From: an uncultured Coriobacteriia bacterium | GTDB taxonomy: Bacteria; Actinomycetota; Coriobacteriia; Coriobacteriales; QAMH01 | Length of the DNA stretch: 64,000 nucleotides | Direction of reading: 5' to 3' | Assembly (NCBI GenBank): GCA_902475535.1 | Contig: CABRZR010000001.1 | Span: 15,995-79,994 of the forward strand | Part shown: in pieces, positions 1 to 51,870 of the stretch | How the letters are laid out: the number at the start of each line of letters is the position of its first letter | Position numbering within the stretch: the first letter of the stretch is position 1 | Made by a program: the position numbers and the translations under genes | Notes under the pieces: model-generated | The model's database searches: none | What the model saw: the letters and a program-made list of their open reading frames with translations, nothing else | Told to the model about the DNA's origin: nothing

Positions 1-3000
1 TAGTAACGGTAGAGGATGAGGCCCTCGTGGACGTTGCCCTTGATGTGCGAGGTGTAGGACACGCCGTTGATGACGATTTCCTCCGTGTACTCATAGCCCT
101 CGAAGCGACTATCGTTGAGACCGTTCCTGTCGAGATTATCGGCGACCACCTCGGCATTATTCTTGCGCATGAACTCCTGGTAGATGAGGTTCTTCACCGT
201 GCCGTCACCTGTGACGCGTACGTGGTAGACCTGATATTCGATATTGTCCTTGGAGTTGTAGTACAGCGTGAGGAGCATCTTGCCGTCAGCCGTGATGACC
301 GCGCGGGCAACCGTGTCGACGCCGCCGCCGATGGAGTCGAACGCCGGATCGCCCGGAACGAGGTAACGGTAGCCGGGAATCTCGATGTTGTCGCCGTTGC
401 GGTAGCTGACGCCGGAGACGTCGAGATCGGCCCAGGCAACCTCGTCGGTGATGCCGTAGTGGACGACGTAGTTGTCGCGAATCCACTGCGGGTCATCCTT
501 GTGGTTGATCGTCGCATCGCCAACCATGTCGACGGTGCCATCCTGCTTGAACGGGAAGAAGTCGCCATCGCCGTCGACACCCCAACGCGTCACGTAGTAC
601 GGCGTGTTGTCGTTGGCGCGCCACACCGCGCGCAGCATGACCTTGGCGTTGGTGGGCATGATGTAGATGACCTTATCGGCATCGATGAAGGTGAACGTGA
701 AGCTCGCCGGGTCGTAGGCGGAAATCACGGCAGTCCACTCGGCGCCGCCATTGGCGATGTAGCCGGTCTTGCCGGCAGCCAGCGTGCGGCACGAGTCCTG
801 CGAGGCCGCGCCCTTGGCGGTGTCCTTGCCGGCGGCCATGAGGCCGTTCTTGTCGATGGCCCAGCCCACGAGCGTGTAGCCCGGACGTTTCACGTCGGCG
901 TTGGTGGGCAGCGTGAAGCTGGACTCGGTGGAGTGCTGCTTGCCGGAGTACTGCGACTCCTTGCCCGGCTCCCAGGTGCCGTCGCCGACGTTGAGGTCGA
1001 GCACGCGATCCTTGAGCGGGAAGTAGTAGACGACGAGGTGCATGCTGCCGTCGCCCGCGATGCGCCACTCGCTCTTGACCGTTGCGCCGGTCACGCCGGA
1101 GCCGTCCTTCTTGGGAACGCTGTCGCTCTTGCCGTTGGCGATGGTGTAGTAGCCGGCCAGAGCACCGTAGGCGTTGGTGTTCCAGGGCTTGGGGCCAGCC
1201 GTGGCACCGGCAGTCGCGAGCTCGTCGGTGACGCCGGTGAAGCGCAGCGGATCGACAGCGGCGAGGTCATTGCCGGCAGCGTCGATCGGCACGAGGTCGC
1301 CGTCGCCGGTGATCTTGTAGCGGTCGACGTAGAAGACGGTATCGGACTTGGCGCGCCAGGTGGCGTAGAGCGTGATGCTCGCATCGGTCGGGGCGAGATA
1401 GAGGGTCTGTCCCCCTATCACCACCGCGGTGAATGCGGCGCCCTTGTCGGAGGTGCGCTTGGTGTTTGCCTTGGCCGCGTCAGCCGCCGCCTGCGAGGCG
1501 AGACCCGTGGAGGTGCCGACGTTGACGGTGGTGGCCGTGGCGGCGCCATCGACCTTCACGTTGTAAGTCGGGACATTGGACCAGCCGGCCAGGTCGTAGC
1601 CCGTGCGATCGGCGGCGGAGGAGATCTCGACGGTCTCGTCGGTGTAGACCTGCATCGTGGGGTCAGCACCCGTGCTCACGCCACTACCGAAGTTGAAGGT
1701 GATGGTGTTGAGCAGCGGCTTGAAGTACAGCACGAGCACCGTCTTGCCGTCGCCGGTGATGATGGCGCGGGCATCGGTGGTGAACGCGGTGGCAACGCCG
1801 TGGAGCGTGACCGTTTCACCGTCGGCGGCGAAGGCGTAACCGGCGAAGCTGAACGCGGAGTCATCGTTGCGGTAGGAGACGCCGGCCTCGGCGGCATCGG
1901 CCCAGGCCTCCTCGTCGGTGATGCCGACGTGCTTCACGACATGACCCGCGTCGGCGGTCGCACTCGTCACGAGCTTGCCGTTGGCATCGCGCACGAGCTT
2001 GCCGTCGGAGGTGACCGCGTAGCGCGTGCCATCGCCGGAAACGACCCAGCGCTCGACAAGGTACTCGGTGTTGTCATTTGCGCGCCAGGTGGCGAACAGC
2101 GTCACGTCACCCGTCGGCATGATGTAAAGGGTCTGTCCCCCATTTACCACGGCGGTGAAGACCTTGCCGGTGATGGCGTTGCGGGTCGTGTCGGCACTGA
2201 TGCTCGTGAAGGCGTTCTGCGACTTGATGCCCTTGAGGTTCGAGATGATCGTGGCGGCATCGACGCTGGTCACGTACTGGCTGTTCGTCCAGCCCTTGAG
2301 CGTGTAGCCGCTACGCGTGACCTCCGTGGTGGGCAGCGTGTAGCTCTGGTCGGCATAGAGCGTGACCTGCGCGGGCGTGGCGCTCAAGTTGGGGATGCTC
2401 GCGTCGCCGATGTAGTACGTGATGGTGTACTGCTTGGGCGCGAAGTAGAGCACGAGCTTGGTGGAGCCGTCGCCGGCAATCTGGAGCGTGGCGATGGTCT
2501 TGAACGTGGTCTGGCCGTTCTTCGCGGTGACGAAGTTGCCCTCGCCCGTGTAGGTGTAGCCGGTGATGCTGAGATTCTGATCGGCGTGATGATACGCGAT
2601 GCTGGCGTCGAAGCCTGCTAGGGCGCTATCGGCAAAAGCAAACTCGTCGGTCGTGCCGATATACTCGATGCGATGGGCGGCATCGGCAGTCGTGCTGCTG
2701 ACGAGCATGCCGTTGGCATCGCGCTCGAGCGTGCCGTCGGCCTTGAGGGCGTAGCGCGTGCCATCGCCGGAGACGGCCCAGCGCTCGACCGTGTACCTCG
2801 TGTCGTTATTCGCATACCAGACGGCATAGAGGGTCTGTCCCCTTGTTGGCATCTTGTAGCCCGGGGTGACGAAGACGTAGGTCTTGCCGTCGGCGGTCGT
2901 GGCGACGGTGATCCAGTTGGCGCCACCATTGGCCGTGTCGTTGCCGGTGATGGCGGCCAGCTGTCCTGCCTTCACCTGCGAGGCGAGGCCCTTGATGTGG

Positions 3001-6000
3001 TCACCCAGACCGGCGTCGGGATTGGTGGTCGACCAGCCCACGAGCGTGTAGCCCGGGCGGCTGATGTTGGCGTTGGTCGGCAGGTCGAAGTTCGACTCGG
3101 TGAGATGCTCGGGGTTCCAGGTGAAGCCGGAGTTCCAGGTACCGCCACTCGTCTCGAGCTGCAGCTGGAGCTTCTGCGCGAAGTAGTTAAGCGTGATGCG
3201 CATGGTGCCGTCAGGCGCGATGGCCTTCGTGGCGGTGCTGGGCTTTGGCGTCGTGCCATCGTAGCCGTAACCGGTGAAGTCGCCGTTGTAGCGCGCGTCA
3301 CCCGCCGTCGTGTTGAACGGTGCGGCCGTGTACTCCTTGTCGGTCATGCCGCGGAAGGTCTCGGTGATGGTGGTCTTGGCGGTGGTGTTGCCCTCCCAGC
3401 GCACGTGATCGACGTAGTAGACCGTGTCGTCGTTGGCGCGCCAGATGGCGTAAAGGGTCTGTCCCCCACTTCCCATCGTGAAGATCTTGAGGAGGTCTTC
3501 GAAGGTGTTCTCGACGTAAGCGTAGGTGTAACCCGCAAGCGAGGTGCCCGTCTTGTCGGCCCTGATGAGCGTCGTGACGCGGATCCAGCTCGGGTCGGCG
3601 CCAGAACCGATGAGCATATCCCAAAAGTCCTGCGAGGCCTGGCCCTTGGCAGTCGCCGTGTCCGGGTTGGTCGACCAGCCCATGAGCGTGTAGCCCGGTC
3701 GGCTCGCAGCCAGGTAACCGAACATCACGTGCTGCGACTCGGTGTCATAGCTGATGGTCTTGACACTGCCGCTGTTGGTGCCGCTCGTATTGATCCAGGT
3801 GCCCATGTTGCCGAGGTCAAGCTTGAGGTCGAAGCTCTTCGGGAGATACCAGAGCGTGAACCTCGCCGTGCCATCGGGGCTGATGTTGCCGTACGCACTG
3901 GTCGAAACCGTCTGGGCGATGTTGCTGGTGCCGATGTAGGTCTCGCTCGCGCCGGCAGCCAGGAAGCGGTAACCCTCGGGAACGGCGATGTTGAGATAGG
4001 TGATGCCGTCCTTGTACTCGGTCTTGTCGGCGTCGAAGCGCACCTCGGTGTCGGCATAACCCTGGTAGGTCACCGTATCGAGCTCGACCTTGTCGCCATG
4101 GCCGGTGAGCTTCCAGCGGTTGACCGTGTAGTCGATGAGTTTGGGCGTCCACACGGCGCGCAGGGTGATATCGCCAGTCGGCGTGAGATAGGTGAAGTTG
4201 GTGCCATCCTTGAAGAAGAGCTTGAGGTAGGTGCCCTTACCGGTGTTCTGACCCTCGAGCCAGGTGACGATCTGCTGGGCCGTGTAACCCATCGCGTCAT
4301 TTACAGGGTCTGTCCCCTTCTTGTCGGAGATGGTCCAACCGAGGAAGTCATAGCCCGGGCGCGTGGGCGCGGGAACGGTCGACAGGTCGAAGCTGTCATC
4401 GGTGTAGTGCTTCTGCGTGATGAAGTTGGTGTTCTCGGTCGCGTCGAGCGTGCCGCCGGTGATGGTGCCGAGCGAGCCGGTCTCGAAGCGAATGGTGTTC
4501 TCGTTGGCGCGGTAGAACAGATAGAAGACCGTCTTGCCGTCAGCGCTGATGGTCTTCACGGCGTAGGTCGTGCCCGTGGCGCTTTCGATCGTGAAGCTCG
4601 CGTTGTTGAGCAGGTAGGTGTAGCCGGCAATGGTGCGCATGTAGCCGCCGATGGTGTCGAGGTCGAAGACGACGTCGGACTTGCCGTTGTTGTAGGTGAC
4701 GCGCCAGGCGGCGTTGGTGGTATCGGAGGCATCGGCGCTCGTGTTGGGCGTGCCGGTGATGAGGGCACCGTTGCTATCGCGACGCACGGTGCCGTCGGGA
4801 TTGAGCGGCGAGAAGGTGCCATCACCGGTGATGAGCCAGTGCTCGACGTAGTAGACGATGTCGCTGCGCGGCGTCCAGACCGCGTAGAGCGTCTTGTCGG
4901 TAACGGGCATGAGGTAGGTCGCGCCATTGAGATAGTAGAGCGGGCGACCGGAGGGGTCTGTCCCCAACGTGCCAAGCCAGGCGATGACGGCTTCGGCCTC
5001 GGCGCCCAGGGCATCGGCGATGTTCTTGACCGTGACGGCCGTGGAATCATCCGCCGAGACGATCTTGCCAGCAGCATCAACGCCGTAGCTGGCGATGGTC
5101 GTCCAACCCTTGAGCACGTAGCCCGGGCGGCTCACGGTGAGCTTCTCGCCATCGGCGGCCGCAGGCAGCTTGAACGTATGATCGGCACGATGCGTGACGT
5201 CGGCTGAAATTCCGGGGTCTGTCCCCCCATTGCCACCAGCGGAGATGGTGCCGTGGGAGCCCGGATCGTAGGTAAGGGTCAGATTCTTGGCGACGTAGTA
5301 GAGCTTGAGGACGAGCGTGCCGTCGGGTGCGACGTAGATACCGCTGGCGAGCATGCCGTCCGTCCACGGGCCCTTGCCGTTGATGGCGGAGATGCTGCCC
5401 AGCGCGTACTCGTAACCCGCGATGGTCCAGGGGTTGTAGGTCGTGTACGTACCCACAACCGCGTCGGTGGGGACAGACCCCATGACGTAGATGTGCGAGT
5501 CGGAGAGCACCGTGCCGTCGGTGTACTCGACACGGATGCCGGTCGGGCTGCTCACGAGCACGCCATCGGCGCCGCGCACGAGGTTGCCGCTCGCGTCGAT
5601 CGCGTAGAGCGTGCCGTCGCCGGAAATGGCCCAGTGCTCGACCGTGTACTTCACGACGAGCGGCTTGTAGTAGATGTAGATGGCCGTCTTGCCCTTGTTG
5701 GTGCCGTCGAAGGCGCCGCCCCACTCGATGAGCACGTTGGCGGCCGTCGTGACCGTCTTGATCGTGCCGTCGGCGGCGGTGTAGGTGTAGGACTGCAGGT
5801 CGGCGATGGCCTCGTAGCCAACATAGCTATTGGCGGTAATCTGGGCGGTCAGGCCCGTCGTGCCGCGGACGATCTCGCCCACGCCATCGGCAACCTTGGT
5901 GGAGCCGATGTAGTACTCGAGCGTGCCGTCGCCGCGCACCTTCACGTGATAGACGACGTAGGCGGTCTCGAGGCCCTGCCAGAGCGGCCTGAGAACAACC

Positions 6001-9000
6001 TCGCCGATGGGCATGGTGTAGGTGAGCTCGGTAACCGTATCCGAGTACATCATCGCATGCTCGACGTCATTGCCGACCATCCAACCCACGAGCTTGTAGC
6101 CCTCACGCGTCAGCTCGTTGGGCTTGGGAAGCGTGATCGTGGCGTCGGCGCCGAAGTGGCGATACCAGGTGTCGGTCTTGCTGGCGAGCGTGCCCTCCTG
6201 CGTCTGCGCGTTGTTGAAGAGGGTGTCGGACCAAGTGCCCTGCGAAGGCTCGAGCGCGAGCGTGAAGTTGCCCGGCGTGTAGAAGAGCTTGAGCACGAGG
6301 CTACCATTACCGGAGATGACGCCGGTGGTGATGGTGCCGGCGTAGGTGCCGTCATAGGTGTAGGCGAAGATCGTGGAGCCATCGAGCGCGGTGGTCGGGT
6401 ACACGTTATCGACGTTGTCGATGGTGTAGTACCAGCCGTTCTTGAAGTACTGGCCCGTGTGGCCGTCCATGTCGCTCTCGGATGCGGTGACGTTGACGTT
6501 GGCATCGGTGAGGCCCTTGTACGGGATGCGCGCGGCAGCCTCGGCTGCGGCGATCTGCTCCGGCGTCAGGTTGCTGCCGTTGATGATGACGAGCTGGTCG
6601 CCAACCTTGACGTCGTTACCGTTTGCATCGACGAGGATGATGTTGCCGTCACCGTCGACACGGTAGCGATTCACGCCGTAATCGACCTCGACGGCCCTGA
6701 AGATGAACACGAGCTTGGTGGTGCCGTCCGCGTTGACGATGGCGTGCGCGATCGTGTTGGTGGGCATGCCGCTGAAGCTCAGGGCCTCCTCGGTGGAAAC
6801 GACCCAGCGATAGCCGGCAAGGCCGAACTCGGTGGTGAGCGAGCCGTCGTAGTTCTCGCCGCTCGTGCCGCTCTGGGCCGGACGCTGTGCGAGCGTATCG
6901 GTGTCCTCGTCGGCCACGCCGTTGTTGTAGATCTTGGTGCCGACGAGCTCCATGGTGCCGTCGCCCTTGACCTTGTAGATGTCGGCCGTATACGTGGTGG
7001 AGCCCGTGGGAGTCCAGACGGCGTACAGCGTCATCGACAGAACGCCGATCTTGAAGGACGCGCCCTGGCCGTAGAAGGTCTTGCCCATGTGGTTGGCGAT
7101 GTCGGCATTGAGGGTCTGTCCCCAATGCGCCGCAAAATCAGGGTCTGTCCCCAACGTGCCAAGCCAGGCGGCGAGGCGCTGGGCCTCGTAGCCCTTGGCG
7201 TCGCTGATGGCCTTGGCACCGGCGGCGTCGGCACCCACGAGGGCGAAGCTGGCGGCATCGGTACCCGTGTAGTGGCTTGCCACGGTCCAACCAACGAGCG
7301 TGTAGCCGTCGCGCTCCACGATCGGGCCCTCGGTGGCCTCAATCGGCAGCGTGAACGTGGACTCGGAGCTGTGGTTCTTCTGGAAGGTGACCGTCGTGGC
7401 CTCGCTACCGGTGTTGTAGACGAGGTTGAGCGTATCGGCCACGTAGAAGAGCTTGAGGAGCAGGGTACCGTCGGCAAGGATGGTGCCCTGGGCGATGGTC
7501 TTGTAGGTCACGCCGTTGATGACCTGCTCGAAGGTCTCGTCATAGGTGTAGCCGATGAAGTTGGGATTCTCGGCAGCCGAGAGGTTGAGATGCGCGTAGG
7601 TGAAGCCGGCCGACGCGCTGATGCCAGCGGGACGATCGACGGAAAGCGTCGAGGAGGTCTTGCCCCAACCCTTCACCTTGTTGGTGGCGGCACCGGTACT
7701 CGTGCCGTCAATCCAGACGGGGACGCTGCTTCCGGCGATGAACTCGGCGTAATCCTTGCCGGCAGCGGCTTCGAAGCCGTTGAAGGGCAGGACCTTGCCA
7801 TCACCAGTGTAGCGATAGAACTCGACGGTGTAGAGCACGTCGATGGGGATGTAGAACTGGATGATCTTCGTCGAGCCATCGCCCGCGATAACGGCGGTCG
7901 GGATGGCGGCATTGGGCCAATCTCCCGCACCCGAGATCGTCGAGGGAACGAACGAGTTGTCGAGCGTGTAGCCCAGCGGGTTGGAGGAGGCGGGCGTGAC
8001 GGAGGTGTCGGTCGTGCCCGTCAGGGTCTTCACGTCAACCTTGGTGAGCAGCTTGCCGTCGGCACTGGCAATCCAGCGCTCGACCGTGTACGTGGTGTTG
8101 GTGTTGGCCGTGTAGTAGAGCTTGAGCACGAGGCTGCCGTTGCCGGCGATGACACCCTGGGCGATGGTCACGTAGGACTGGCCGGGATAGGCGGTCTGGC
8201 CGTTTGCCACGAAGGTGTAGCCGGGATAGGTCTGCGCGATGCCCGTGACCGTCTCGCCGGTGATGCCGGTGAGGTTCTCGGTGAGCTCGACCTTCTCGGT
8301 GATGGTCGTGCCGTCGTTCACGAGCTTGATGTGCTCGACCGTGTAGGCCGTGTTGGTGTTGGCCTGCCACACGGCGATGAGCACGGCGCCGTTAGGCGGC
8401 AGCACGAAGGAGGTACCGCAGGCGAAGTACTGCCTGCCGCCATTGGGATCGGTGCCACCCACGATGGGATTGGCGGCAAGTGCCGCGTTGAGGCTCTCGA
8501 GCCAGGCAACGATGTCGCGCGAGCGCTGGCCCGTCGCATCGGCGATGTTGTAGCGGCTACCGGCGGTGATCTGACCGTTCACGATGTCATAGGTCGTGAT
8601 GGTCGTCCAACCGGCAAGCGTGTAGCCGTCGCGCGTCGCGGAATTGCGACTCGGCACGGTGAGCGTCTTCTCGGTGGGGATGGTGCTATCGACACCCTGC
8701 GTCTTGTCGGCATTCCAGGTGGCGTTGTAGAAGGCCTCGCTGTCGTTCCACTTACCGGCACCGGTGTTGAGCGTGATGCTCTGGGCCGTGGGCTCGTAGT
8801 AGAGCTTCAGGACGAGAGTGCCGTCGGCAAGGACGGTGCCGGTAAGGATCTCGGAAAGGGTCTGTCCCCCAATTGTCGCGCTGAAGCCGGCTTTGTAGGC
8901 GTAGCCGGTGAAGGCGCCATTGGCCGCAGCGTCGAGGGCGACGGCCGTTGCCGGGTCATCGGTGATGCCGTGGAATGTCTCGGTGATGACCTCCTTGAGG

Positions 9001-12000
9001 GTATTGTCGCCGGTGACACGATAATGCTCGACGGTGTAGACGCTGTCGTTGCGCGCCTTCCAGACCGCGTAGAGCGTGACGTTGACAGCGCCGATGGTGT
9101 AGTTGCAGTCGCCGCTCGCGAGGATGAGCGTGATGTCACTGCCGTTGTAGCTGAAGAGCAGGTTGCCGTTGGCGTCGACATGGGTCAGGTCGGCACCGGC
9201 CAGGGCGGCCAGCAGCGCATCGGCAAGCGTGATCGAGGCGGTACCTTTCGTGTTCTTGCCGTCGGGGATGGAGGCCCAGCCGACGAAGTCGTAACCCGGA
9301 CGCTCGACGAGCGTGGAAAGCTTGACCGTGCGGTCGGCCTTGTACTTATCGGCATTGTGCTCCTGGCCAGACCAGGCACCAAAGCTGCCGAGGTCGAGGT
9401 TGAGCGTGACGTCCTGCGCCTCGTAGAAGATCTTGAGGATCGTGGAGCCGTCGGAGGCGATGTCGGTCTTGTAGAGCGACCTCTGGCCCCTCAGGTTGAA
9501 GTCGTCCTTGCGCAGGTAGCCATCGAAGGTGGCGGCAAGGTCAGCGGCGCTTACCTCGACCGGACCGTCGACCAGGCCCTGATGCGTCTCCTCCTTGGCA
9601 AGTACGAAGGTCTCGTTGCCCGTGAACTTGAACCACTGGACCTTGTAGTCGATCATCTGCGCCTCGTAGTAGAGCTTGAGGACCGTGGTGCCGTCGGCGT
9701 TGATGTTGAGGGAGGCGATGGCGTTGTAGACCTTGCCGTCCTTATCGGTGACCGTGTCGGCAAGCTGGTAGAACGTGGTGCCGAAGCGGTTCACGTCATC
9801 GGCCGGGACACCGTCGATGATGCCCGTGGAGACCAGGCCCGCCTTGGCAAGCGTGTCGGTCATGCCCACATACTCGACGGTGCTGTCGAGAACCACGGTG
9901 CCGTCGCCACGATGCTTGTAGTACTCGACCGTGTACTTGGTGTCATTGCGGGGCAGCCACACCGGATAGAGCGTGGTGGCGCCGCGCGGCATCGTGAAGG
10001 TCGTGGTGAAGAACTTGCCACCCAGCGACGCAAGCCACGTCTGCAGGTCGATGGCCGTCTGGCCACCGGCAACGCCGATGCGGCTATCGCCGTCGCTGCC
10101 CTCGGCAAAGGAACCGGCATCGGTGCCCGTGTAGAAGCCAACCGTGGTCCAACCGGCCAGGGTGTAGCCGGGACGACGCAGGTTGGTGCCCGTGGGAAGT
10201 GTCACGGTCTCGTTGGGCATGTACATGGCAGACGGATCGACGTCGTTGTACCAGCTGCCCACGGTGCTGCCATCGGCACCCGTACCGGGGTCGAAGGTGA
10301 GCTGCGAGCGAACCGCGTAGTAGTAGAGCGTGAGCACGAGGCTGTTGTCGGCGGCAATGGAGCCCTGGGCCACGGTCGTGACCTTGGTCTCGGCGGCATC
10401 ACCCAGGCGGGTCATGTTGCCATGGGGCAGGAACTCGAAGCCGGGGATGGCGACGTTGTCGTTGGCATTGGTGTTGGGGCTGGACGCGACCTCCTCGGGG
10501 GTAGCGGCAGCATTTGCCATGGCATCGGCCTTGCCGTTGGTGTGCACGATGAAGTGCGGCGTGGCAAAGGCCGGCAGGTGGTAGGTGACCCCATCCACGG
10601 TGGAGACGATGCAGCCATTGCCGTCGATGGAGTTGATGCCGAAGGTCGTGTCAATGGCACCAGCCGCATCAATGGGCAGAACCGCGCCGTTGGCGGCGAT
10701 GGACCAGTAACGGTACTGGACCGTATGGATGGTCACGTCCTCGTAGACGTCCTCCATCACCATCTGGCCATCCTTGTAGATGATATTGCCGTTCTCATCG
10801 CGAGCGGGCTGCTGGACGGCATCGCCATTCTCGTCGAGAACCTGACGATGCTCGACGGTCGTGATGATGTACTCGTTGCCATCCGGGTCGAGCCACGCAA
10901 CCGGGTTGCCGTCGGCATCGCGCTGGACGAGCCTCCCGTCTTCGGTGGGCTCGAGCGCGATGGCGAAGTTGAGGTTGCCATTCTCGTCAACGGCGACGAG
11001 CTTGCCGTCACCAGTGGCAGCCCAGCGGACGACACGGTACTCGGTGCTGTTGGTGGGCTCGTAGTAGAGCTTGAGGTGCAGTGCACCGGTGGTGTCTCCC
11101 GCCCTGTTGCCGGACCAACCCGTGACGACACCGGAAGTGTCGCTCGTGTAGGGAGTGCCACCGACCTCGATCGAGGCAACGTAGCGATAGCCCGTCGGGA
11201 CGTTGTATTCCCTCTGGTCATCGGTCACCATGACGGTTTCGCCGGTGGTAGCCGTGAAGATCGTGGAATCGTAGAACTCGATGGTGCCATCACCGCGCAC
11301 CTTGTAGTAGTCGATGAAGTAATCGGCATCGCCCGGTGTCCAGACGGCGTAGAGCGTCTGGGCTGCGTTGCCGGTGACGAAGCTGGCGCCAGGAGCGTAC
11401 GTGGTGCCAAGACCGTCGGCCTGGGTGTTCCATCCGCCAAAGACATAGCCAAAGCGGTAGAGCGTGGTCGCATCAGGCAGCGTCACCGTCGTGCCGGTGC
11501 GCGGCGCGGGCTTGGGCGACTGGTCGGCAATGACCCAGCCGGCGTTGCCCTTGGCCTCGTCGCCGGCGGCGTTAACGTCGTAGATGAGGTCGTTTTGCTG
11601 CGCATCGAAGACGAGCGTGAGCTTGAGTGCGCCGCCCGCACCGATGATGCCGGTCGGCGTCGAGGTATACGTCTTGCCGTCGATGACGACACTGAAGGTG
11701 GCGTTATAGGCATAACCGGTGATGGCGTCGGCCGCGATCTTGGCAAGGCAGTTGTTGTAGTAGACGAGCGCCGTGTCGGTGCCAGCCTGGTCGACGTAGA
11801 TACGCGTGTTGGCATAACCCTTGAACAGCAGCACGTTGGTGGCAGCGCCATCCGGATCGGCCGGCAGAGACTCGTCGTAGACGGCTACGCCGGTGACGCT
11901 CGTCGCGTTGGCCTTGAAGGCGTTGATGGGCTCGATGAGGCCGGTGCCCGTGTAGCGCAGGAACTCGACCGTGTACTCGGTGTCGGCGGTGACGTCGAAG

Positions 12001-15000
12001 TAGAGCTGGATGGTGGCAAGGCCATCGGGCGTGACGAGGGCCGACTCGATGCTGGCGGGAGCCGTGCTACCCGGGGCGCGGTAGAACTGACCGGTGATGA
12101 CCTTGTCGGCATCGGTGGCCTCGGCCATGGTATGCGTAGGCGCGGTACGGTTCTCCGAATCGATGAGGGTAACCGAACCATCGCGGGCCACACTGTAGCG
12201 GTTGACGAAGTAGTTGGTGAGCGTCGGCGTCCAGACGGCGTAGAGGTTCACGTCACGGGCCGGCATCTTGAAGAGGTCGCCTGCGGCGTAGTAGTTGCCG
12301 GCAGCCAGCGCGCCGAGCCAGGTAATGACATCGAGGGCCTCCTGGCCACGGGCGTTCACGATTTCCTTGACGTCGAGGCCGTCGATGCCTGCCGTGACGA
12401 TGGTGCCATCGGCACGCACGGAGTACGTCTCGACGGTGGTCCAGCCCAGCAGCTCGTAGCCGGTGCGCGTGACGACGGCGAGCGTCTCGTTCTTGGGCAG
12501 GTTGAGCTCGTAGCCAAACTGCGTGGCCGGCGAGGAGTCGCCCGCGCCAACCCACTTGCCCGCATCCGGGTCAGTGGGATCGCCGGTGACGTAGGTGAGC
12601 TCGTAGGTATTAGGCTCGAAGTAGATGACGAGCTCGAGGGTCTGGTTGCCGATCATGCCGGAAGCGACGGTCAGGTAGGTCTGGCCGTTGACGGTGAAGC
12701 TCACGCCATCGCCCAGGTAGCTATAACCGGCAGGCGGGTTGGAAGCGTAGGCATGGTAGATGTAGCCGGCGGTGGCACTGGCACCCGTGGCATCGACGAT
12801 GACGTTGGAGCCGACGGCACCGATATGCTTGTAGCCCTCGAGCAGCGCGTCGCCGGCGGCAAGCTCGTTGCCGTACTCGTCGACCTGGATGGCGTTGCCC
12901 ATGCCGTCGACCTTGAAGATCTTCACGACGTAGTCGCCGGACACGGGAACGAACACGTGCACGAGCCTGAGCTTTCCATCACCGCTAATGATGCCAGTGA
13001 GAACCTCGTCGATCTTGAAGTTGGGATCGCCATCCCACAGGCCGATGATGTAGTCGGCGGTGGGAACCTGATAGCCCTCGGGAGCAACCGGGACGGTCGT
13101 GACGGACTCGCCGGTGGTACCCGTGCCCGTGAGGTTGGGCAGCTTGGTGATGGTGCCATCGGCATTGAGCTGGTAGCGCTCGATGGTGTAGGGCGTGTCC
13201 GTGTTGGCAACCCAGACGGCATAGAGCGTGATGTCATCGGTGCCGATGGCGATGGTAGCGCCAGGAGCATGGACGACCGCGCCACCGTTTTCGGTAGCCC
13301 AACCCATGAAGGTGTAGCCGGGGTTGCGCAGGTGGTTGGTAGTGGGCAGCGTGGTCTCGGTCTCGCTGCGCAGCAGCGTCGAGCCAAACGCCGAGTAGCC
13401 CGGTGCCCAGTTGCCCGCGCCGGCTCCCGTATCGGGAACGAGTGTGAGCGTGTGGTAGTCGGCCTCGTAGTAGAGGTTGAGGACGAGCGTGCCATTGCCA
13501 AGCACCACGCCGGTGTCGACGCTGGGATACATCTCGCGATGGGCGCTCGGCAGGATGTACGTGTAGCCGGGGATGGAAGGCGCCACGGCCGTGACCCTCA
13601 CACCCGTGAAGTCATAGAAGGTCTGGCTCGGTGCCGCGGGAGCCTTGTATGCCAAGGGATCGCTCTGGCCGAGGGCGGAACCCGGAATCTTCCAGTAGTT
13701 GACGACGTACTGAACCTGGATGGCCTGGAAGACGTGGACGAGAACCAGCTTGCCGTCACCGGTGACGATGCCGGAGAGCTTGGTGGTGAACGTCGTCGGC
13801 AGGCCGGCCATGGTGCCGGAAGCGCCGGTGCCATCGGGGACAAGCTGGTAGCCGGCGGGCACGTTGGGCGTCGTGCTGACCAGGTCATCGGTGTAGCCAG
13901 TATAGCTCTCGCCGGTGAGCTGGGTGAACACGCCGTTGCCGTCAAGCTGGTAGCGATAGACGACGTAGGGCGTGTCGGAGTTGGCGGTGTAGTAGAGCTT
14001 GAGGACGAGTGCCGGATTGACCATGACGACGCCGGTGGAAACCTCGCCGCTATGACCCGGTGCGTAGGTGTAGCCAGCCCACAGCGCATTGGTGGCCGTG
14101 TCGATGGGCACGGCGTTGACGATGGTGCCCGCGTAGTCCGAATCGGTATCGGTCTTGACGAGGGTCACGTTCCCGTAGCGATCGACCTTGTAATGCTGAA
14201 TCGTGTAGTCGATGGGCAGCGCGACGAAGATTGCCTTGTAGGTGGTCGCGACAAAGACGCCGTCAGCGTTGCGCGGCGGGACGAGGTGCGCGGGCGCCTT
14301 GTTGGTCGCATCGTACATGACGACGTTGCCGTCGGCGTCTTCCCAATGGTCAAAGGCGTAGCCAGGGTTGGCGGTGGCAAGCGAACCCGCCGGCGTGCCC
14401 GTGGCAGGCAGCACATCTTCGCTTCCGAGCGAGACGCTACCACCGGTGCCGGCGACATAGCTGATGGTGACCTTGGGGAGCTCGATGAAGATCGCCGTGA
14501 AGGCGTAGACGGTCTTCTCGACCCAGCCCCCATCGGGCACGGACGGGATGAAGAGCGAGGAAATCCCAATGTTGGTCTGGTCATCGGGGTTGTCGCCAAC
14601 CTGCCAATGGCTGAACTGGTACCCAGGTGCCGCGATGGGCGTGGAGCCAAGCGGATCGGGAATCGGGCTCACCGTGATGTCGATCTGCTCGCTGCCGAGC
14701 GTGACGGAGCCACCGGTACCCGCGTTGTAGATGATGGTCGGGTTGGTGAGCGCGTTATTGGTGTAGAAGAGCTTGAGCGCGAGGCTGCCGTCGGCGGCGA
14801 TGATGCCCGTGAGCGTGGAGGCCGAAGCGCTGAAGCTATGGCCGGCAAAGACGGGGATGATCGTGATGCCGCCAGGCAGCGTGATGACGCCATCAGCGGG
14901 AACGCCGGAGATGGCACCGCCGTCGCTCGTGTCACCGGTGATCGTGAGCACGAGGTCGGTGGAACCGGTCGCATTGATGGTAGCGCTCGCATCCTTGCTG

Positions 15001-15060
15001 AAGACGCCGTTGGCATCCTGCAGCCAGTACTCGATGACGAACGGCGTGTCGGTCTTGGGG
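1..15060 (-). repeat. MucBP-like/Ig-like repeats (YxVx(H/R)(Y/W)...GDG...LKLYY) interleaved with Flg_new-type repeats. The array continues past the left edge.
   Basis: Examples are TPYTIERYQLNADGTITKLPNLTGTGTTGESVTTVPVAPEGYQV...GDGKLRLVHVF and TKYTVEYYKHRGDGTVVLDSTVEYVGMTDT...ADGTTVLKLYYE. Family assignment is by pattern only. Confidence 0.5.
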
Positions 15061-18000
15061 ATGACGCGCACGGTGTAGGTAGCGGCGGTGTACATGCCGT
15101 CGGCACCGCGGCTCGGCGTGAAGCTGTCACCACTTGCCACCTTGTTGCCAGCCGCGTCGTACCAGCCCTCGATCACGTAGCCAGCGGAGACGTGGGCGAC
15201 GTTGGTCTTGGGATTGCCGGAAACGGGCGGTACGGCCTCGGTCGCGAAATCGACCCAGACGACGTTGCTGTTGGAGACGGTGTAGTCGATGGTGACGCTC
15301 TCGAGCTCGGCAAAGACCGCATAGTAGGTATGGGCCTCGTAGCGACCACTTACAAGGTCACGACCGACGAGCAGCGAGGCGTTGGTGGAAACCTCGTTGC
15401 CATTCTCGTCCACCCAGCGCACGAAGCGATAGCCATCAAAGGCGTTGGCGGTAAGGGTGAACGGGCCGGCGTAGAGCATGTTGGAGAGGTTGGCCGGATC
15501 GAGCGCGTCGCCGGTAACGGCGGAAAGCGACTGGGTGCCCTTAATGTTGACGAGCTTGTCGTAGGCAGGGTCGGCAAAGGCCGGCACGTAGGTGCCGCGC
15601 GGATCATGAACCGTCTGCTCGACCCACACGATGCCGTTGCCAGCGCCGGCAGGGCCGGTGATGTGGCCAAAGTAGTTGGTGCCATCCGTCTTGACCTCGT
15701 AGGAGACCTCGACGTAGTCCTGCTTCCAGTGCGCGAACAGGGTCGTCGGAGCCGTGGGCATCTTGATGGTGGCACCCGGCGCGTAGAGAATCGAGCCACC
15801 GGCCGACAGCGACCAGCCGTCGAGGATCCAACCGATGAGCTCGATGTCAGTCGTGCCGGGCAGGACGACATCGGTCTTGGCGATCTGCGTGATGGTGCCG
15901 GACGTGCCGTTGGTGAAGGCGCCGCCATTGGGATTGAGCGTGAGCGTCTGGTCCTTGCCAACCCACAGGGCGGTGAAGGTCACGCCGCCGGCGGTGACGA
16001 GCACCTCGCTGGGAATGACGTAATCGGGATAGACCTTGCCATCGCTTCCGCGCCAGCCGTTGAACAGCCAGTTGGAGTCGTCATCGGCACCGGGCTGCTT
16101 GCCCAGGCCGGGAACATCGACGAGCAGGCCGTCATTGCCGGTGGCAAAGGTGGGCACCGAGCTTCCGATCCTGATGTCATCGAAGAAGGCGCCCGTATCG
16201 CCCGTGGTGGTCGCGGCCGTCCAGTTGCCATGGTCGCCAGGCAGGTAGCTCACGAAGGAGAGCTGCTCGAAGACGGCATACGCGGTGACGGTACCCGCCA
16301 CGATGAGCTTGGACAGGCCAAAGTTGGCATCGCCATCATCCACAGTGACGCTGCCGCTGACCGTGGTGCCATCATCCTTGACGGCAGTCCAATCCCAGCC
16401 AGCCAGGCGATAGCCCTTGTTGACGACGAGCCCGATGGCCGAGGCGACGCCCTGGCCGTAGGTCTCGGTCGCGGTGTAGACCACGTGGGTCATGGTGCCG
16501 GAGGTGATCGTCTGGGCGACGAAGTCCTTGTCACCGGTCGTGCCAGCAGAGAGCGTGCCGGGAGCGCCATCGCGCAGATCGACGGTGACCGTGTAGGTCT
16601 TGGGTGCCCACTGGGCAAAGAGCTCGAGGGTCGGCTTGGGATCGGTGGTAATCCAGGAAGCGCCGTTGATATCGGCGATACCGGTAACCGCACCATCGGC
16701 ATAGGAAATGCCCGAACCATCGGCCTTGGTGTTCCATCCGGTAAAGGTGTAGCCGTTCACCACGTAGGCGTTATCAGTAAGCGCGATCTGCGAGTTGAAC
16801 AGGAAGCCCTGCTTGGGAGGCATGGTACCCGTGGCCGGATCGTTGGGATCGGGCTCGTTGGCGTTGAAGGTGACGTAGTAGTCGGCCTCGGCCCACAGGG
16901 CCACGACGTTGATATCGTAGACCTTGGGATCGTCCGGATCGCGACCGGGCAGCTCGACGGTCAGGTCAGCGACCTTGGAGAGGTCAACCTGGAGGACGTC
17001 GCGCGTCTGGAGGATGACGCCGCTTGCCCCACGCTCGAACCACTGGATGCGCCAGCCGGCAAAGTACCAGCTCGTGCCACTATCCTCCACGTCGCCTTCG
17101 GGCAGGGCGCCGATGCTATTGGCGTAGGCGGGGAACTTGCCCAGGGGCGCGACGTGGGTAAAGATCGTCTCGTTCTCGACCGCCGGGTCGGGGAAGGCAC
17201 CATCTGCCGCGTGCTCACCGGGCAGGTAGTTGACGATGATGGCTTCCTTCCAACGGGCAAGGAAGGTGGTGGGACCGAGAATCTGGAAGGTGGCCGGGGC
17301 GTTGACGTCAAGACCGGTCTGGGTGATGGTCTCGTTGTTGCCGGTCACGTAGGTGACATCCCAGCCGACCAGGTACCAACCCCTACCAGGAGTCGTAATG
17401 ACCTTATCGTATTCGGCATACTTGCCGTACCAGACCGCCTGGCTGTCCTCGCCGTCAACGACACCCCTCGTGCCGTTCTCGCTCGCGAAGACGACGTTGA
17501 CGCGCTCTTCCTCCCACTGGGCGTAGAAGTGAACGACGGCGCCCTCGAGGGTGGCGAGGTTGGAGATGTAGCCCTGGGAGCTCGTCTGGGTGAAGAGGTT
17601 GGTTCCCTCGACGGTCCAACCGATCCAGTGGTTACCGGCGCGGGTGAAGCGATTGGCCAGCGAGACCTGCTCGCCGTACTTCACGGTTACGGTCTGCGGA
17701 GTGGAGTCGTCACCCGTGTAGTAGGCATCCCACACGTTGCCGTGGAACGAGACGGTGTAGGTGATGGGCGTCCAATGCGCGTAGAGGATGAAGTCGCGCG
17801 GCTCCTCGTCACCGCAGAGCTGCTCGAGGGTGACCTCGGTGCCAAAGGCGTACTGCACCGCTGCGTCATCGCGATGGGCGGCGTCGCACCAGCCATCGAA
17901 GACGTAGCCAAGGCGCCACATCTCGACGGTGTCGGCCGCGGTGGCCAGCATGAAGGGCTCGTCGACCTTGTGCAGCGCCCCGTTGGGCGGCGAGGTGATC

Positions 18001-42554: not shown

Positions 42555-43433
42555 GTATGTCCGCTTTGTGCTCAATACAACTCCTGAACGGGGGTTATGA
42601 AAAACACATCGAGGTGGAACGGAAGGGAAACAAGGGGTAGAACGGCTAGGGACGTTTGAGAAGGATGATTTGGATTGAAAAAACGCGGTAGACGTGGTGT
42701 TTTGGGATTCGAATTGTACTTCCCTCAAGTAAAAAACGCCTGCGTAACCAGCCGTTTTGCCCAGTATCGTTTGCGAACGGTAGGTTATTTCGGGCGGATG
42801 ACAGTGATTTTCCCCATCGTGTCCATTTTTTCTCGACACGTCTCCACAATTTCTTGAGAAGTGAGTCTGCTAGGTGTCAAAGTCCATTATTTCCCGAAAT
42901 GATATTTGAGCGTTCGTTCGATGTATCGTTTCGAGGCGAATTTTCGACTCGGAGTCATTTTCATGAAATTATTCCGTATTACATATAAAGATTTATCATA
43001 AAACGTGATTAAGATTCCGACGACCGATCCCTGTGGAAAACTTCGCATCTCGACGCGGAATTTTTATCTAGGATTTGGATAAATCTTTATCGCGATTTAA
43101 GATAACTCAACAGGCACGTTCTGCGTGCGATTTTCTCCAGATTCTTTATCTGTTCTCGGTATAATTTTATAGGCTTCAATTTCTCGGACTGATATACAGA
43201 AAATGTCTCTGATTTCATACATTTTTGAGGCGTTTCTTGAGCAGCCTTTCGGCTTTCCCCTCCCCCGTGCTCTTTCTGCACTCGTACCCCCTTAATCGCT
43301 CCGCGCGATAATTCCGCGCCACCCTCCGCGCCCAGGCGCGGAACCCTCGATCGAGGTTTCTCGACTCCGGCGCTTCGCGCCTCCGCTCGAAACGAAAAGA
43401 GGGCGCACCCCCTTCGATCGAAATGACCCTCGA

Positions 43434-43467
43434 GGGTCTGTCCCCTTATTACTAGGGGTCTGTCCCC
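43434..43467. promoter_or_regulatory. Tandem pair of GGGTCTGTCCCCTTATT (43434 and 43456, 22-bp spacing) in the upstream region of the giant gene
   Basis: The sequence is gagGGTCTGTCCCCTTATTactagGGGTCTGTCCCCTTATTgcc. It is non-coding and lies 880 bp upstream of ATG 42554. Its function is unknown. Confidence 0.6.
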
Positions 43468-46138: not shown

Positions 46139-46142
46139 ACGC

Positions 46143-47462: not shown

Positions 47463-47474
47463 GGGTCACCTCGC

Positions 47475-48119: not shown

Positions 48120-48198
48120 GCTCGTCCTCCAGTCGACTGCTGGCAAGTATACCGATTTGACCGCGTGTTTTGTCTCTACAACATGATAGGCTTTGAAC

Positions 48199-51108: not shown

Positions 51109-51123
51109 AACCGCTGGTAGGAG

Positions 51124-51648: not shown

Positions 51649-51735
51649 TGCGCACCTCCCTTCGGGCATAACCTCATTATAGACAACTTACCGCAGTAAC
51701 CATAACCGTTCGCCCGACCCTCCACAAGAAACTTG

Positions 51736-51770
51736 GACGGCGCGTGGTCGTTTCGTTTCCACGCCGTCAT
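51736..51770 (-). terminator. Possible terminator hairpin downstream of the PNP gene
   Basis: The stem is GACGGCGCGTGG...CCACGCCGTC, and on the minus strand it is followed by caagtttctt. The stem is imperfect and the U tract is weak. Confidence 0.35.
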
Positions 51771-51780
51771 CTCGACAAAT

Positions 51781-51854: not shown

Positions 51855-51870
51855 GCTGCCCTACGCTGCC

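Follow-up and report, generated by a model that had tools for sequence, protein, structure and literature searches.

What is an exact 12-nucleotide word doing, far more often than chance would place it, in the coding sequence of a giant bacterial gene? In the window (the whole stretch of 64,000 nucleotides analysed here), GGGTCTGTCCCC occurs 13 times, versus 0.01 expected from dinucleotide-preserving shuffles, and 11 of these copies lie within the last 9 kb seen of one giant minus-strand ORF, in three reading frames. We found that the word is not special to the giant gene: a family of REP-like palindromic repeats has it as its invariant core, or apex, GGGG-ACAGA-CCC[C/T]. We consider it probable that this family is the cognate DNA of a TIRYT transposase and that it has spread into the tail of the giant gene.

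The 12-mer, its setting and its repeat family

The features that frame the word are as follows.

3..41201, minus strand: giant ORF with a length of 13,733 codons or more, cut off by the left window end
41205..42869, minus strand: 555-codon DUF285 ORF immediately upstream of the giant ORF, same strand; word-free
43434..43476, minus strand: intergenic tandem word pair, (TGGC)AATAA-GGGGACAGACCC twice, with a 22-nt period

The giant ORF has a DUF285/BspA-type LRR N-terminal part followed by Flg_new (InlB B-repeat) modules, and divergent GYxLxGW...TLYAVW modules make up its distal 4,400 codons; the orthologue in the related contig L141 is called as a protein of 15,059 aa. Long plus-strand ORFs were rejected as genes, being antisense shadows of this minus-strand ORF.

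On the plus strand, GGGTCTGTCCCC starts at 1403, 2129, 2831, 3455, 4306, 4954, 5215, 7112, 7141, 8858, 43434 and 43456, and its single minus-strand copy is at 5469. The 11 in-gene positions given in a preliminary description of this DNA are correct, and our scan of the window agrees that there is no copy from 8870 to 43433. Word-free sequence makes up about 55 kb of the window, including the right-hand 20 kb, and extends to the origin region. The scan detected no one-mismatch variant in the window and only 3 two-mismatch variants, versus 7.5 expected by chance, indicating that the word is all-or-none.

Genes rpmH-rnpA-yidC-jag-rsmG-parA-parB lie on the minus strand, and dnaA-dnaN is placed, via contig L001, approximately 3-5 kb past the right window end; this makes the minus strand the leading one, identical in sequence to the lagging-strand template. 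The strand bias of 12 of 13 copies, and the leading-strand argument built on it, both hold. The A/T-rich flanks that had been remarked upon are also real, with T-G-G-C-A-A at -9 to -4 in 8-12 of the 13 copies: these flanks are the arms of a longer repeat unit. About 570 nt separate the intergenic pair from the downstream DUF285 gene, which precedes the giant gene; such a pair is typical of the family's extragenic clusters. A terminator-like sequence follows this pair on the minus strand.

The hairpin of GGGGACAGACCC has a 4-bp GGGG/CCC[C/T] stem and an ACAGA loop. The complete repeat unit of this Coriobacteriia lineage reads GGCAATnn-GGGGACAGACCC[C/T]-nnATTGCC, often a 12-13 bp hairpin in related contigs; among 474 distinct units, 94% have C or T at base 13. 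Folding energies of intergenic units lie between -13 and -17 kcal/mol (z -5 to -8); the hairpins of the window copies are marginal (-2 to -5 kcal/mol, z near 0).

Contig L139 overlaps window positions 1392..1 at 95.8% identity and continues past the left window end, where a transposase-like gene is found about 3.6 kb further on. The order giant gene, 217-aa gene, Y1_Tnp gene (265 aa), moeA recurs in L134, L135-L139 and L141-L145. The TIRYT gene lies outside the window, and its presence in this genome is indicated by the 95.8%-identical contig together with the conserved synteny. Words are dense in these contigs (12 in 10 kb of L139, 19 in 9.6 kb of L135, 32 in 20.8 kb of L141, 40 in 20.8 kb of L143): in L139 and four related Coriobacteriia contigs, nearly all intergenic spacers beside the giant gene hold 2-5 of them. 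In the relatives, words are also found inside an MFS gene and at the end of a 276/286-aa gene, and inverted copies sit just upstream of the TIRYT gene. Across the window and five TIRYT-carrying related loci, exact copies number 132 and one-mismatch copies 2. In L133, the Y1 gene is absent between the 212-aa gene and moeA, and there is 1 word in 16 kb.

The word had been described as a feature of the giant gene, a view that fails because it fills nearly all adjoining intergenic spacers in the near-identical contig and in relatives. The contrary possibility raised at the time, that the word is simply abundant everywhere, holds in part: there are 12-40 copies per 10-21 kb near the gene, and the word is present in other genes and in more than 10 phyla.

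The 12 of 13 copies in sense orientation could also point to action at the level of RNA, either as an mRNA mini-hairpin or protein site (an antitermination element like nut, ops or boxB, or a stabiliser) or as the antisense target of a small RNA made from the intergenic pair. The C or T at base 13 would keep a G-C or G-U pair, and the terminator-like sequence after the pair fits as well. We regard this reading as quite improbable, since strand bias in relatives is approximately 63-83%, leaving 17-37% of copies on the other strand (including antisense copies in the MFS gene and copies in divergent promoter regions); moreover, the window hairpins are marginal, Rfam gave no match for the word, and the word is directly linked to a DNA enzyme.

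Copies within the giant gene

Site by site, the in-gene copies are the following.

8856..8879, minus strand: 24-nt in-frame unit GCGACAATTG-GGGGACAGACCC-TT, coding for A-T-I-G-G-Q-T-L; the word is 8858-8869
7102..7170, minus strand: lineage-specific 69-nt in-frame insertion with two words, 7141-7152 (read G-T-D-P) and 7112-7123 (read G-Q-T-L)
5469..5480, plus strand: inverted copy, read G-S-V-P, the only one in the gene
5215..5226, minus strand: word, read G-T-D-P, with a perfect TGGCAA 5' arm before it
4954..4965, minus strand: word, read G-T-D-P, in the context AWLGTLGTDP
4306..4317, minus strand: word, read G-T-D-P, with a GW motif immediately before it
3455..3466, minus strand: word, read G-Q-T-L, overlying the conserved module end xxTLYAIW with length unchanged
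2831..2842, minus strand: word, read G-Q-T-L, overlying MPTRGQTLYAVW
2129..2140, minus strand: word, read G-Q-T-L, in the context AVVNGGQTLYIMP
1403..1414, minus strand: word, read G-Q-T-L, in the context AVVIGGQTLYLAP

Comparison with orthologues and paralogues revealed that such copies arise in three ways. Some are unit-sized in-frame insertions: the 24-nt unit is present in the window and L134 and missing at the orthologous L133 site in a three-way alignment, and the 69-nt insertion, whose first part copies the paralogous AWLGTLGTDP context of 4954, is missing from both L134 and L133. Others are equal-length replacements of a patch of approximately 26-30 nt, as at L141:6364, where about 13 differences are packed into about 30 nt between flanks that are about 90% identical. 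Most word-bearing sites in the gene show no length change relative to their paralogues; at 2831, for example, the paralogues and L133 are equal in length with other bases (L133: CGACCCAGACTC), and the word at 3455 is common to the window and L134, with CGGG[C/T]GTGAAGT in L143 and L141. Finally, at one site, two synonymous changes suffice: at 5469, G-S-V-P is encoded by GGC/GGA TCC GTC CCC in L141 and L133 and by GGG TCT GTC CCC, the exact word, in the window.

We found that the 12-mer, once present, stays exact across TIRYT-carrying species. At 5215 each of the four TIRYT-carrying relatives that we compared has the exact word (GAAGACGGATCC in L133, 8/12), and the copy at 4954 is exact in L134, L143 and L141 despite differing bases just upstream (GGCCGTAGACTC in L133, 7/12). 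Site 4306 is exact in L143 and L141, and reads GGGGACGGACCT in L134 and CGGAACGGATCT in L133. The 1403 copy, the sole in-gene copy whose stem is extended (to a hairpin of 9 bp, GATAGGGGG...CCCTCTATC), corresponds to GAGGACAGACCC (11/12) in L133. In three comparisons with TIRYT-carrying relatives, core identity exceeded flank identity (0.96 vs 0.88, 0.94 vs 0.81 and 0.91 vs 0.81; p = 0.011, 0.0002 and 0.007, respectively). In L133, which has no Y1 gene at the syntenic site, the values were 0.67 vs 0.72 (p = 0.34): in this relative the 12-mer has decayed. The three readings previously assigned to the word were borne out at every site, and the use of three frames, the inverted copy and the recoding of G-S-V-P in L141 and L133 confirm that conservation acts on the DNA word rather than on a peptide. 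As had been argued, repeat homology can account for no more than part of what is seen.

Same-frame copies spaced by multiples of 3 (726, 702, 624 and 648 nt, as originally claimed) in a giant, repetitive surface-protein gene, with interspecies indels that coincide with the words at 8858 and 7141/7112, make the words resemble crossover sites for programmed in-frame domain deletion or duplication, and hence for surface-protein length or phase variation. We now find this proposal very doubtful. In our orthologue comparison no pair of words delimited a deletion or duplication, and only indels of one or two repeat units (24 and 69 nt) at single words were seen; the one large difference, a stretch of approximately 965 nt missing from L133, is not bounded by words either. 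Moreover, most sites have stable orthologues in four species, intergenic DNA and other genes are filled with the same word, and the window ORFs that we scanned yielded no site-specific recombinase. The suggestion that a recombinase might accompany the motif fared better in another form: no tyrosine or serine site-specific recombinase was detected among those ORFs, but a Y1 (HUH) tyrosine transposase-like gene does co-occur with the word.

The Y1 transposase-like gene

The same 12-mer is present in more than 10 phyla, as arrays and as REPIN-like doublets, which in metagenomes form long perfect palindromes. An all-against-all comparison of ORFs at 119 loci with word pairs yielded one specific conserved neighbour family, present at 10 of them, from Planctomycetes, Kiritimatiellia, Treponema, Gammaproteobacteria, a CPR bacterium and other sources. 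Seven of its 10 members match Pfam PF01797 Y1_Tnp (best E 1.8e-17), and its profile matches E. coli TnpA-REP (PDB 4ER8, E 1.3e-7). The nearest word is within 500 nt of the Y1 gene or overlaps its ORF at nine of the loci and is 71 nt away at the tenth; several have words on both sides of the gene. The Coriobacteriia Y1 protein aligns with this cross-phylum set at 99.6% probability (hhalign) and has HFH at residues 60-62, with Y119, N123 and P124 invariant. The gene is classed as a RAYT-like HUH/Y1 transposase of the 'TIRYT' type (TnpA-Y1 subclass 2.1, RAYT group 1).

The word begins GGGGACAG, fitting GGGGWSAS. Four distant TIRYT homologues (33-38% identity), chosen regardless of motif, all lacked the exact 12-mer, indicating that the word marks a subset of the TIRYT family; the inverted repeats flanking the Desulfitobacterium homologue have only GGGGACAG in common with the word. 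Among 120 metagenome loci with inverted doublets, only 1 carries a Y1 gene.

A DNA uptake sequence (DUS/USS-like), built up through biased uptake and recombination, would likewise be an exact short word with A/T-rich flanks that is tolerated in several reading frames. It is an extremely unlikely identity for a word that is shared by more than 10 unrelated phyla, clusters tightly instead of occurring about once per kb, forms tandem arrays and palindromic doublets, and flanks a transposase-like gene.

Under the transposase explanation, the family would have colonised the 3' terminal part of the giant gene, approximately 12 kb, mostly as partial units (5' arm plus core); the in-gene partial units are in frame and stop-free. 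We infer that TIRYT recognises, and probably nicks, the hairpin on the single-stranded lagging-strand template, and it would bind or cleave single- or double-stranded DNA carrying GGGGACAGACCCC. Action on that template would explain why 12 of 13 copies lie on that strand. TIRYT activity, or selection tied to TIRYT, may keep the copies uniform, and a word-bearing patch could spread among paralogous modules by gene conversion. The distal clustering might reflect closeness to the transposase gene, loosely constrained paralogous modules, or both.

Simple genome-wide dispersal does not predict the word-free right-hand 20 kb and origin region. Classical REP mobilisation predicts insertions, yet most in-gene copies came without length change. 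Strict conservation in coding DNA could mean host function rather than element activity.

A host function is the substance of an overlapping explanation in which the beneficiary differs: the word would be a cis-acting site under host selection, bound by the HTH domain of TIRYT or by a different factor of the nucleoid, of replication or of transcription, and the giant-gene copies would be functional sites, not passengers, with a part in organising the chromosome, in processing the lagging strand, or in the transcription or mRNA stability of long operons. The higher conservation of the core relative to its coding flanks in four species, the sharp exact-or-absent pattern (132 vs 2), the strand bias in the window and its relatives, the identical core in more than 10 phyla and the two copies in an operon leader region all suit such a site. 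We nevertheless judge it unlikely: the spread is very uneven (0 words in approximately 55 kb of window plus the origin region), one relative has lost nearly all copies with its giant gene still intact, copies take both orientations relative to genes and occur inside unrelated genes, no Rfam family matches, and TIRYT is the only co-occurring factor found.

Comparison with known systems

Transposase-linked repeats are known as a kind of element; what is unusual is how well this one is preserved in coding DNA. TIRYT genes with GGGGWSAS terminal inverted repeats have been described as TIRtrons (Di Nocera et al. 2013, PMC3733652; also PMC6006769), and the TIRYT type corresponds to TnpA-Y1 subclass 2.1 (Quentin et al. 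2018, PMC6006769) and RAYT group 1 (Bertels et al. 2017, PMC5581495). The present system shares with TIRtrons a Y1/HUH protein (about 265 aa) that carries H-u-H and Y---NP motifs and ends in an HTH-like C-terminal tail, and a gene flanked by repeats beginning GGGGACAG, with dimers and clusters elsewhere in the genome. Unlike the published motif, a degenerate 8-mer, the core here is 12-13 nt and exact in 132 of the 134 copies within one mismatch; it recurs in many phyla with clade-specific arms, and forms a dense family (1.2-2 copies per kb locally) that is present in coding DNA. Subclass 2.1 homologues do not all carry the word. For this subclass, Quentin et al. did not find REP-like sequences (PMC6006769), and Bertels et al. 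reported flanking 16-mers in only about 12 copies (PMC5581495).

REP/REPIN-RAYT systems of Escherichia and Pseudomonas (REPtrons) are similar in their short palindromic repeats, intergenic clusters and inverted doublets, in the domesticated Y1 transposase, present in single copy with its own repeats on its flanks (the profile match to 4ER8), and in vertical inheritance, with repeats and gene lost together. They differ in that here there is no 5' GT[AG]G tag, the loop and upper stem are conserved rather than the hairpin foot, tandem direct arrays are many and there is almost no variant-core spread. Intragenic REPs and Rickettsia palindromic elements (RPEs) are in-frame gene insertions (PMC3733652), and REPs occur inside tnpA-REP genes (PMC6006769). 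Like these, the units here keep the frame within ORFs, mainly of tolerant or modular proteins, and the 24-nt and 69-nt insertions are of this sort; unlike them, most copies add no length, being patch replacements or synonymous changes over homologous codons, and are kept exact across species.

Chi, KOPS and DUS/USS resemble the word in being exact, short, strand-biased and tolerated in coding DNA, but they are lineage-specific and genome-wide with no tie to a transposase gene, whereas this word is cross-phylum and locally clustered. Hairpin origins of HUH Rep proteins in geminiviruses and circoviruses carry an invariant loop nonanucleotide. By analogy, the invariant loop and upper stem, the variable lower stems and an HUH enzyme that would act on single-stranded DNA make these origins comparable to the repeat described here, although here there is no replicon.

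The exact 12-nt word and its repeat unit

We found 13 copies of the 12-mer GGGTCTGTCCCC (the word) in the window, 12 on the + strand and one (at 5469) on the - strand, where dinucleotide-preserving shuffles of the window predict 0.01. Copies with one mismatch were absent from the window, and copies with two mismatches numbered three, against 7.5 expected; the word is therefore either exact or absent. These counts bear out the over-representation described in the preliminary description. The giant surface-protein gene that holds most copies is an ORF of 13,733 codons on the minus strand, open from 41201 to beyond position 3, and the long + strand ORFs opposite it are antisense shadows. Its product has DUF285/BspA-type LRR and Flg_new (InlB B-repeat) domains in Pfam, and its distal ~4,400 codons encode GYxLxGW...TLYAVW modules whose mutual identity is only 30-45%. 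On the coding strand of this gene the word is GGGGACAGACCC, and there we obtained the same three readings as described before: six sites read G-Q-T-L, four read G-T-D-P and the inverted copy reads G-S-V-P.

The copies are unevenly spread, with none in ~55 kb of the window and 11 in 7.5 kb. The ~20 kb to the right of the giant-gene operon (44000-64000) contain no word, nor do the ~10 kb beyond the window's right end up to dnaA and dnaN in the origin region, as seen in L001, a contig that carries the window's RlmN. The asymmetry is sharp: the word is absent right of the operon, and on the giant gene's other side close relatives have two to five copies in nearly every spacer. Two features at the operon's upstream edge lie near intergenic words:

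43395-43435, - strand: immediately past the second intergenic word, a palindrome of 14 nt (GACCCTCGAGGGTC), perfect and overlapping the word's end, and a stem rich in G+C with a T-rich run behind it, terminator-like
44158-45231 and 45122-46138, + strand: adjacent WYL/WCX-domain genes, a PafB/PafC-like pair, divergent from the giant-gene operon across a 1.3-kb intergenic region with a tandem word pair

The palindrome and terminator-like stem could mark where a short transcript ends at its 3' side. The PafBC-like WYL pair was considered as encoding a word-binding factor and dropped, adjacency being the sole evidence.

The conserved unit is longer than 12 nt. Alignment of the 13 window copies revealed T-G-G-C-A-A at -9 to -4 in 8-12 of them and, in every copy, a T or C at +13. 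The A/T-rich flanks noticed earlier are real in this alignment and correspond to the arms of the repeat. In related contigs the full unit is a palindrome, GGCAATnn-GGGGACAGACCC[C/T]-nnATTGCC (also given as GGCAATnn-GGGGACAGACCCY-nnATTGCC), and intergenic units of the relatives fold as single-stranded DNA at -13 to -17 kcal/mol. Most window copies have the 5' arm and core only, giving a mini-hairpin of only 3-5 bp. C occupies base 13 in 73% of 474 distinct units, and T does so in 21%. A universal extended hairpin was rejected: complementarity of the lower stem across phyla is modest (33-46% versus 24-28% in the control), and long stems are confined to certain clades. In many intergenic units, the word's 3' part plus ~8-10 nt is repeated at once in tandem, as in GGGGACA[GACCCCATATGCC][GACCCCATATGCC] and GGGGACA[GACCCCCTCTTC][GACCCCCTCTTC]; such sites lie at 3452-3490, 4418-4450 and 9199-9235 of L135 and at 8255-8290 of L139 (both related contigs), with similar ones elsewhere. 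This arrangement looks like a slipped or duplicated 3' flank.

Occurrence beyond the giant gene

Searching at the protein level with the distal 2,600 codons, we recovered two orthologues of the giant gene. One of the contigs, L134, aligns collinearly with the window (76-87% identity at the nucleotide level, with window position 1 falling at L134 18188), and its giant gene ends 2.4 kb past the window-equivalent end. Beyond it come a gene for a 217-aa protein, three words in inverted orientation, a Y1_Tnp gene (a RAYT-like HUH/Y1 transposase, or TIRYT, gene) and moeA. Both the giant gene and the Y1 gene of L134 are split into several called ORFs, the Y1 protein being called at 187 aa and its HTH tail lying in a different frame; its homologues have 265 aa. 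The broken ORFs look like assembly frameshift errors, and a few words may be hidden there. L139, a contig that encodes one of these Y1 homologues, overlaps window positions 1392..1 at 95.8% identity and has an L134-like gene order, which places the Y1 gene ~3.6 kb to the left of the window.

Word copies are numerous in these loci: 16 in 24 kb of L134, 12 in 10 kb of L139, 19 in 9.6 kb of L135, 32 in 20.8 kb of L141 (from a 1.19 Mb contig with a 15,059-aa giant gene) and 40 in 20.8 kb of L143, which NCBI labels as an uncultured Coriobacteriia bacterium. In L135, L139, L141 and L143, nearly every intergenic spacer holds two to five. Intragenic words of the relatives lie in the distal giant gene, in an MFS transporter gene (inverted) and at the end of a 276/286-aa gene. 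The MFS transporter gene is a second case of words kept inside a gene, with two or three copies running against the gene, at positions that three relatives share:

L141 17267-17315: words in the MFS transporter gene
L143 16738-17449: words in the MFS transporter gene
L135 8489-8546: words in the MFS transporter gene

The word is likewise found far from this lineage. Taking one genome per species, we scanned for two same-strand copies 5-35 nt apart and found at least 119 such stretches, against ~0.1 expected by chance; the 119 listed do not include the window's own genome. They came from Planctomycetes; Kiritimatiellia, Verrucomicrobia and Lentisphaerae; Treponema; Coriobacteriia and other Actinobacteria; Burkholderiales and Gammaproteobacteria; Bacillaceae and Clostridia; Muribaculaceae; Acidobacteriota; and a CPR bacterium, so that the word is present in more than 10 phyla. 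The 12-mer is identical throughout and its spacers are clade-specific, often in tandem arrays with a period of 20-48 nt. In metagenomes, a scan for inverted word pairs yielded at least 120 loci; these pairs are long perfect palindromes resembling REPIN doublets, most commonly with a gap of 22-25 nt. The word is thus specific neither to the giant gene nor to the organism: the tie to the giant gene that had been proposed does not hold for a sequence that fills the relatives' spacers, enters other genes and spans more than 10 phyla. A DNA uptake sequence (DUS/USS) was rejected both on this phylum range and on the uneven density, 0 copies in ~55 kb versus 11 in 7.5 kb.

When 18 loci with arrays were scanned against Rfam, no family matched the arrays themselves, the only match being 16S rRNA nearby in two Stieleria loci, and a literature search for the exact word returned primers only. 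The Stieleria loci (L021 1-839 and L103 1-73) hold large tandem word arrays, of 10 to at least 17 copies with a 21-nt period, at distances of a few hundred nt to 3 kb from 16S rRNA genes. Among viral contigs the sole pair match was L007 (IMGVR_UViG_3300037851_000465, positions 8700-8870), in which the word forms part of origin-like iterons, GTCCCCAGGGACAGGACGGGTCTGTCCCC, inside a gene for a phage replication protein; the gene cluster also includes phage exonuclease, helicase, endonuclease/Holliday-junction-resolvase and DnaC-like loader families. We judged the overlap probably coincidental, though the shared GGGACAG/CTGTCCC half-sites deserve mention.

A Y1 transposase-like gene and conservation of the word

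The preliminary description had proposed looking for a recombinase-like factor that co-occurs with the word, and this proved the right check. Comparing all ORFs of the 119 word-pair loci listed with one another, we identified one specific neighbour family, in 10 loci: Pfam PF01797, the IS200-like Y1 transposases, with NH[FV]H and Y..NP motifs. In all 10 of these cross-phylum loci a word overlaps the Y1 ORF or is no more than 500 nt away from the gene, and in several there are words on both sides. A Y1 transposase-like gene therefore specifically accompanies the word. ABC ATPases, response regulators, histidine kinases and AraC regulators were rejected as partners, being ubiquitous and non-specific families. 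Among the 120 metagenome doublet loci listed, only one has a Y1 gene.

The Y1 gene of the present lineage lies outside the window and was taken from L139, the 95.8%-identical contig. Residues 60-62 of its protein, P0093, read HFH, and alignment A2 shows no variation at Y119, N123 and P124. The P0093 family matches PF01797, and P0093 matches the cross-phylum Y1 set with an hhalign probability of 99.6%. Against the PDB, a search with a single Y1 protein gave no match, and the family profile was required to recover E. coli TnpA-REP (4ER8, E 1.3e-7). The C-terminal tail of ~110 aa, ending ...GMTITQLARILRIASTTMHRAF..., has no domain match in P0093 itself; some homologues have precomputed PF12802 or PF13384 (HTH) assignments. 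Words lie 180-280 nt upstream of the TIRYT gene in L139, L141 and L143, and the next ones lie beyond it, after the adjacent moeA. Viral relatives of the Y1 protein are distant and lack the word.

TIRYT genes were described as RAYT-like genes flanked by terminal inverted repeats that share GGGGWSAS, some of which form dispersed families (PMC3733652); the word's start, GGGGACAG, agrees with this consensus. A later study equated TIRYT with TnpA-Y1 subclass 2.1, whose proteins have an HTH domain at the C terminus, and reported no REP-like repeats for this subclass (PMC6006769); for RAYT group 1 only ~12 copies of the flanking 16-mers were counted (PMC5581495). An invariant core of 12-13 nt with variable arms would be missed by a 16-mer count. 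When four distant TIRYT homologues were picked blind to the motif, none (0/4) had the exact 12-mer, which therefore marks a subset of the TIRYT family. One of the four, in the Desulfitobacterium chlororespirans locus L146, is flanked by inverted GGGACAAGGGGACAGGTYTRCTGTCCC (3898-3925 and 4892-4919), which has only GGGGACAG in common with the word and forms a different hairpin (GGGACAG/CTGTCCC). From sequence comparison, recognition sequences appear to have diverged within the TIRYT family.

We compared core and flank identity at orthologous word sites between the window and each relative.

Core and flank identity at orthologous word sites, window versus each relative
Relative; Y1 gene at syntenic site; core; flank; p
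L134; yes; 0.96; 0.88; 0.011
L143; yes; 0.94; 0.81; 0.0002
L141; yes; 0.91; 0.81; 0.007
L133; no; 0.67; 0.72; 0.34

In the three Y1-carrying relatives each site matched at 12/12 or at no more than 10/12, with nothing between, and across the window and five TIRYT-carrying related loci we counted 132 exact copies versus two with one mismatch. L133 has no Y1 gene at the syntenic site, between a 212-aa gene and moeA, in an otherwise similar synteny; its spacers hold no words, and only one occurs in 16 kb. These data indicate that the words are maintained and that maintenance tracks the transposase-like gene. They also support the earlier proposal of constraint at the DNA level: there are three readings and an inverted copy, and the core is better conserved than its flanks where the Y1 gene is present. 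The orthologous sites of L133 include one exact word, 11/12 near-matches and a 10/12 site. Reading the exact and near-exact words as relics, we infer that this lineage probably lost the Y1 gene and that its words then decayed, rather than that the family was never present. The locus thereby offers a natural comparison, in which four lineages with the gene keep the words exact and one without it at the syntenic site has decayed words.

Origin of the coding copies and relation to known systems

Three modes of origin are visible for the intragenic words: in-frame insertion of unit size, replacement at equal length, and point changes. The first mode is seen at two sites, and the second at module ends:

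8856-8879: 24-nt in-frame insertion, GCGACAATTG-word-TT, absent from L133
7102-7170: 69-nt in-frame insertion with two words, absent from L134 and L133
module ends, xxTLYAxW: equal-length replacement, paralogues and L133 having the same codon number and other bases (for example ACG ACC CAG ACT CTC versus AGG GGA CAG ACC CTC)

Insertion of a mobile unit at every site was rejected for most sites, because paralogues and orthologues are of equal length there. At L141:6364, ~13 differences are packed into ~30 nt over the arm and core, with flanks ~90% identical to L143; this pattern points to templated patch conversion, possibly between paralogous modules. Point changes are seen at 5469, where the G-S-V-P codons are GGC or GGA TCC GTC CCC in L141 and L133 and GGG TCT GTC CCC in the window, L134 and L143, two synonymous changes apart. 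Gene-specific programmed recombination, as first suggested, finds no support in the orthologues, which differ by unit-sized indels and by a ~965-nt deletion that is not word-bounded. We found no tyrosine or serine recombinase among the window ORFs scanned, and shufflon-like phase or length variation is unlikely for want of a dedicated recombinase in those ORFs and of any word-bounded rearrangement between orthologues.

In contigs carrying the window's RlmN protein, dnaA and dnaN lie just past the window's right end; the minus strand is therefore the leading strand, with the same sequence as the lagging-strand template. The word has the same orientation in 12 of 13 window copies and in 63-83% of copies in the neighbouring loci of relatives, a bias seen in one region of one replichore and confounded with gene orientation. 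Action of IS200/IS605-type Y1 enzymes on hairpins in the lagging-strand template is established (background cited in PMC6006769), and the bias would fit such action, gene orientation being a confounder. Across the giant gene (1-42000) the GC skew of the + strand is positive, opposite to the leading-strand rule, and the coding strand is C-rich; the sign flip at ~43-44 kb is compositional and not a replication landmark. A role as an ops/nut-like antitermination signal or small-RNA target is unlikely given the orientation in relatives and the weak folding.

Judged by sequence comparison, the word is the local edge of a TIRYT-linked, REP-like repeat family that has entered the tail of a giant modular surface-protein gene. 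That the words stop ~12.5 kb from the TIRYT gene could reflect proximity to that gene, or the restriction to the distal part of the paralogous modules among which patches with a word can spread. A bolder proposal, which we put forward as improbable, is that the 13-nt hairpin GGGGACAGACCC[C/T] is a cross-phylum recognition element for one branch of group-1 RAYT/TIRYT enzymes, which would write and proofread the motif. Under this proposal the enzymes would not merely disperse repeats; they would act on the lagging-strand template, where short patches would be replaced from a template at equal length. Such activity would explain the exact coding copies, the ~30-nt patches, the scarcity of one-mismatch variants and the decay after gene loss. 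If true, the enzymes would be natural editors of single-strand DNA, and a domesticated transposase family would gain a function.

For the RAYT/TIRYT family, in which subclass 2.1 (group 1) had been reported with few or no cognate repeats, the locus supplies a candidate recognition sequence that is precise, very short and invariant. Coding DNA can take up such repeats and keep its length, which is relevant to the diversification of giant surface-protein genes, and a word that seems gene-specific and is the local edge of a repeat family carries a warning for annotation.

The locus resembles the TIRtron/TIRYT systems in its Y1/HUH gene with H-u-H and Y---NP motifs and in the repeats fitting GGGGWSAS that flank this gene at short distance. 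Like canonical REP/REPIN families, it has many dispersed, mostly extragenic palindromic copies, with at least 120 doublets in metagenomes; unlike them, it lacks the 5' GT[AG]G tag at the foot of the hairpin, and its flanks vary across phyla. A KOPS- or Chi-like polar motif would show a replichore skew over the whole chromosome; the strand bias here comes from one region of one replichore and is confounded with gene orientation. The unusually sharp features of this family of TIRtron/REP-RAYT type are its invariant core across phyla and its conserved, length-neutral coding copies, and these two properties make the function of group-1 RAYTs more testable.
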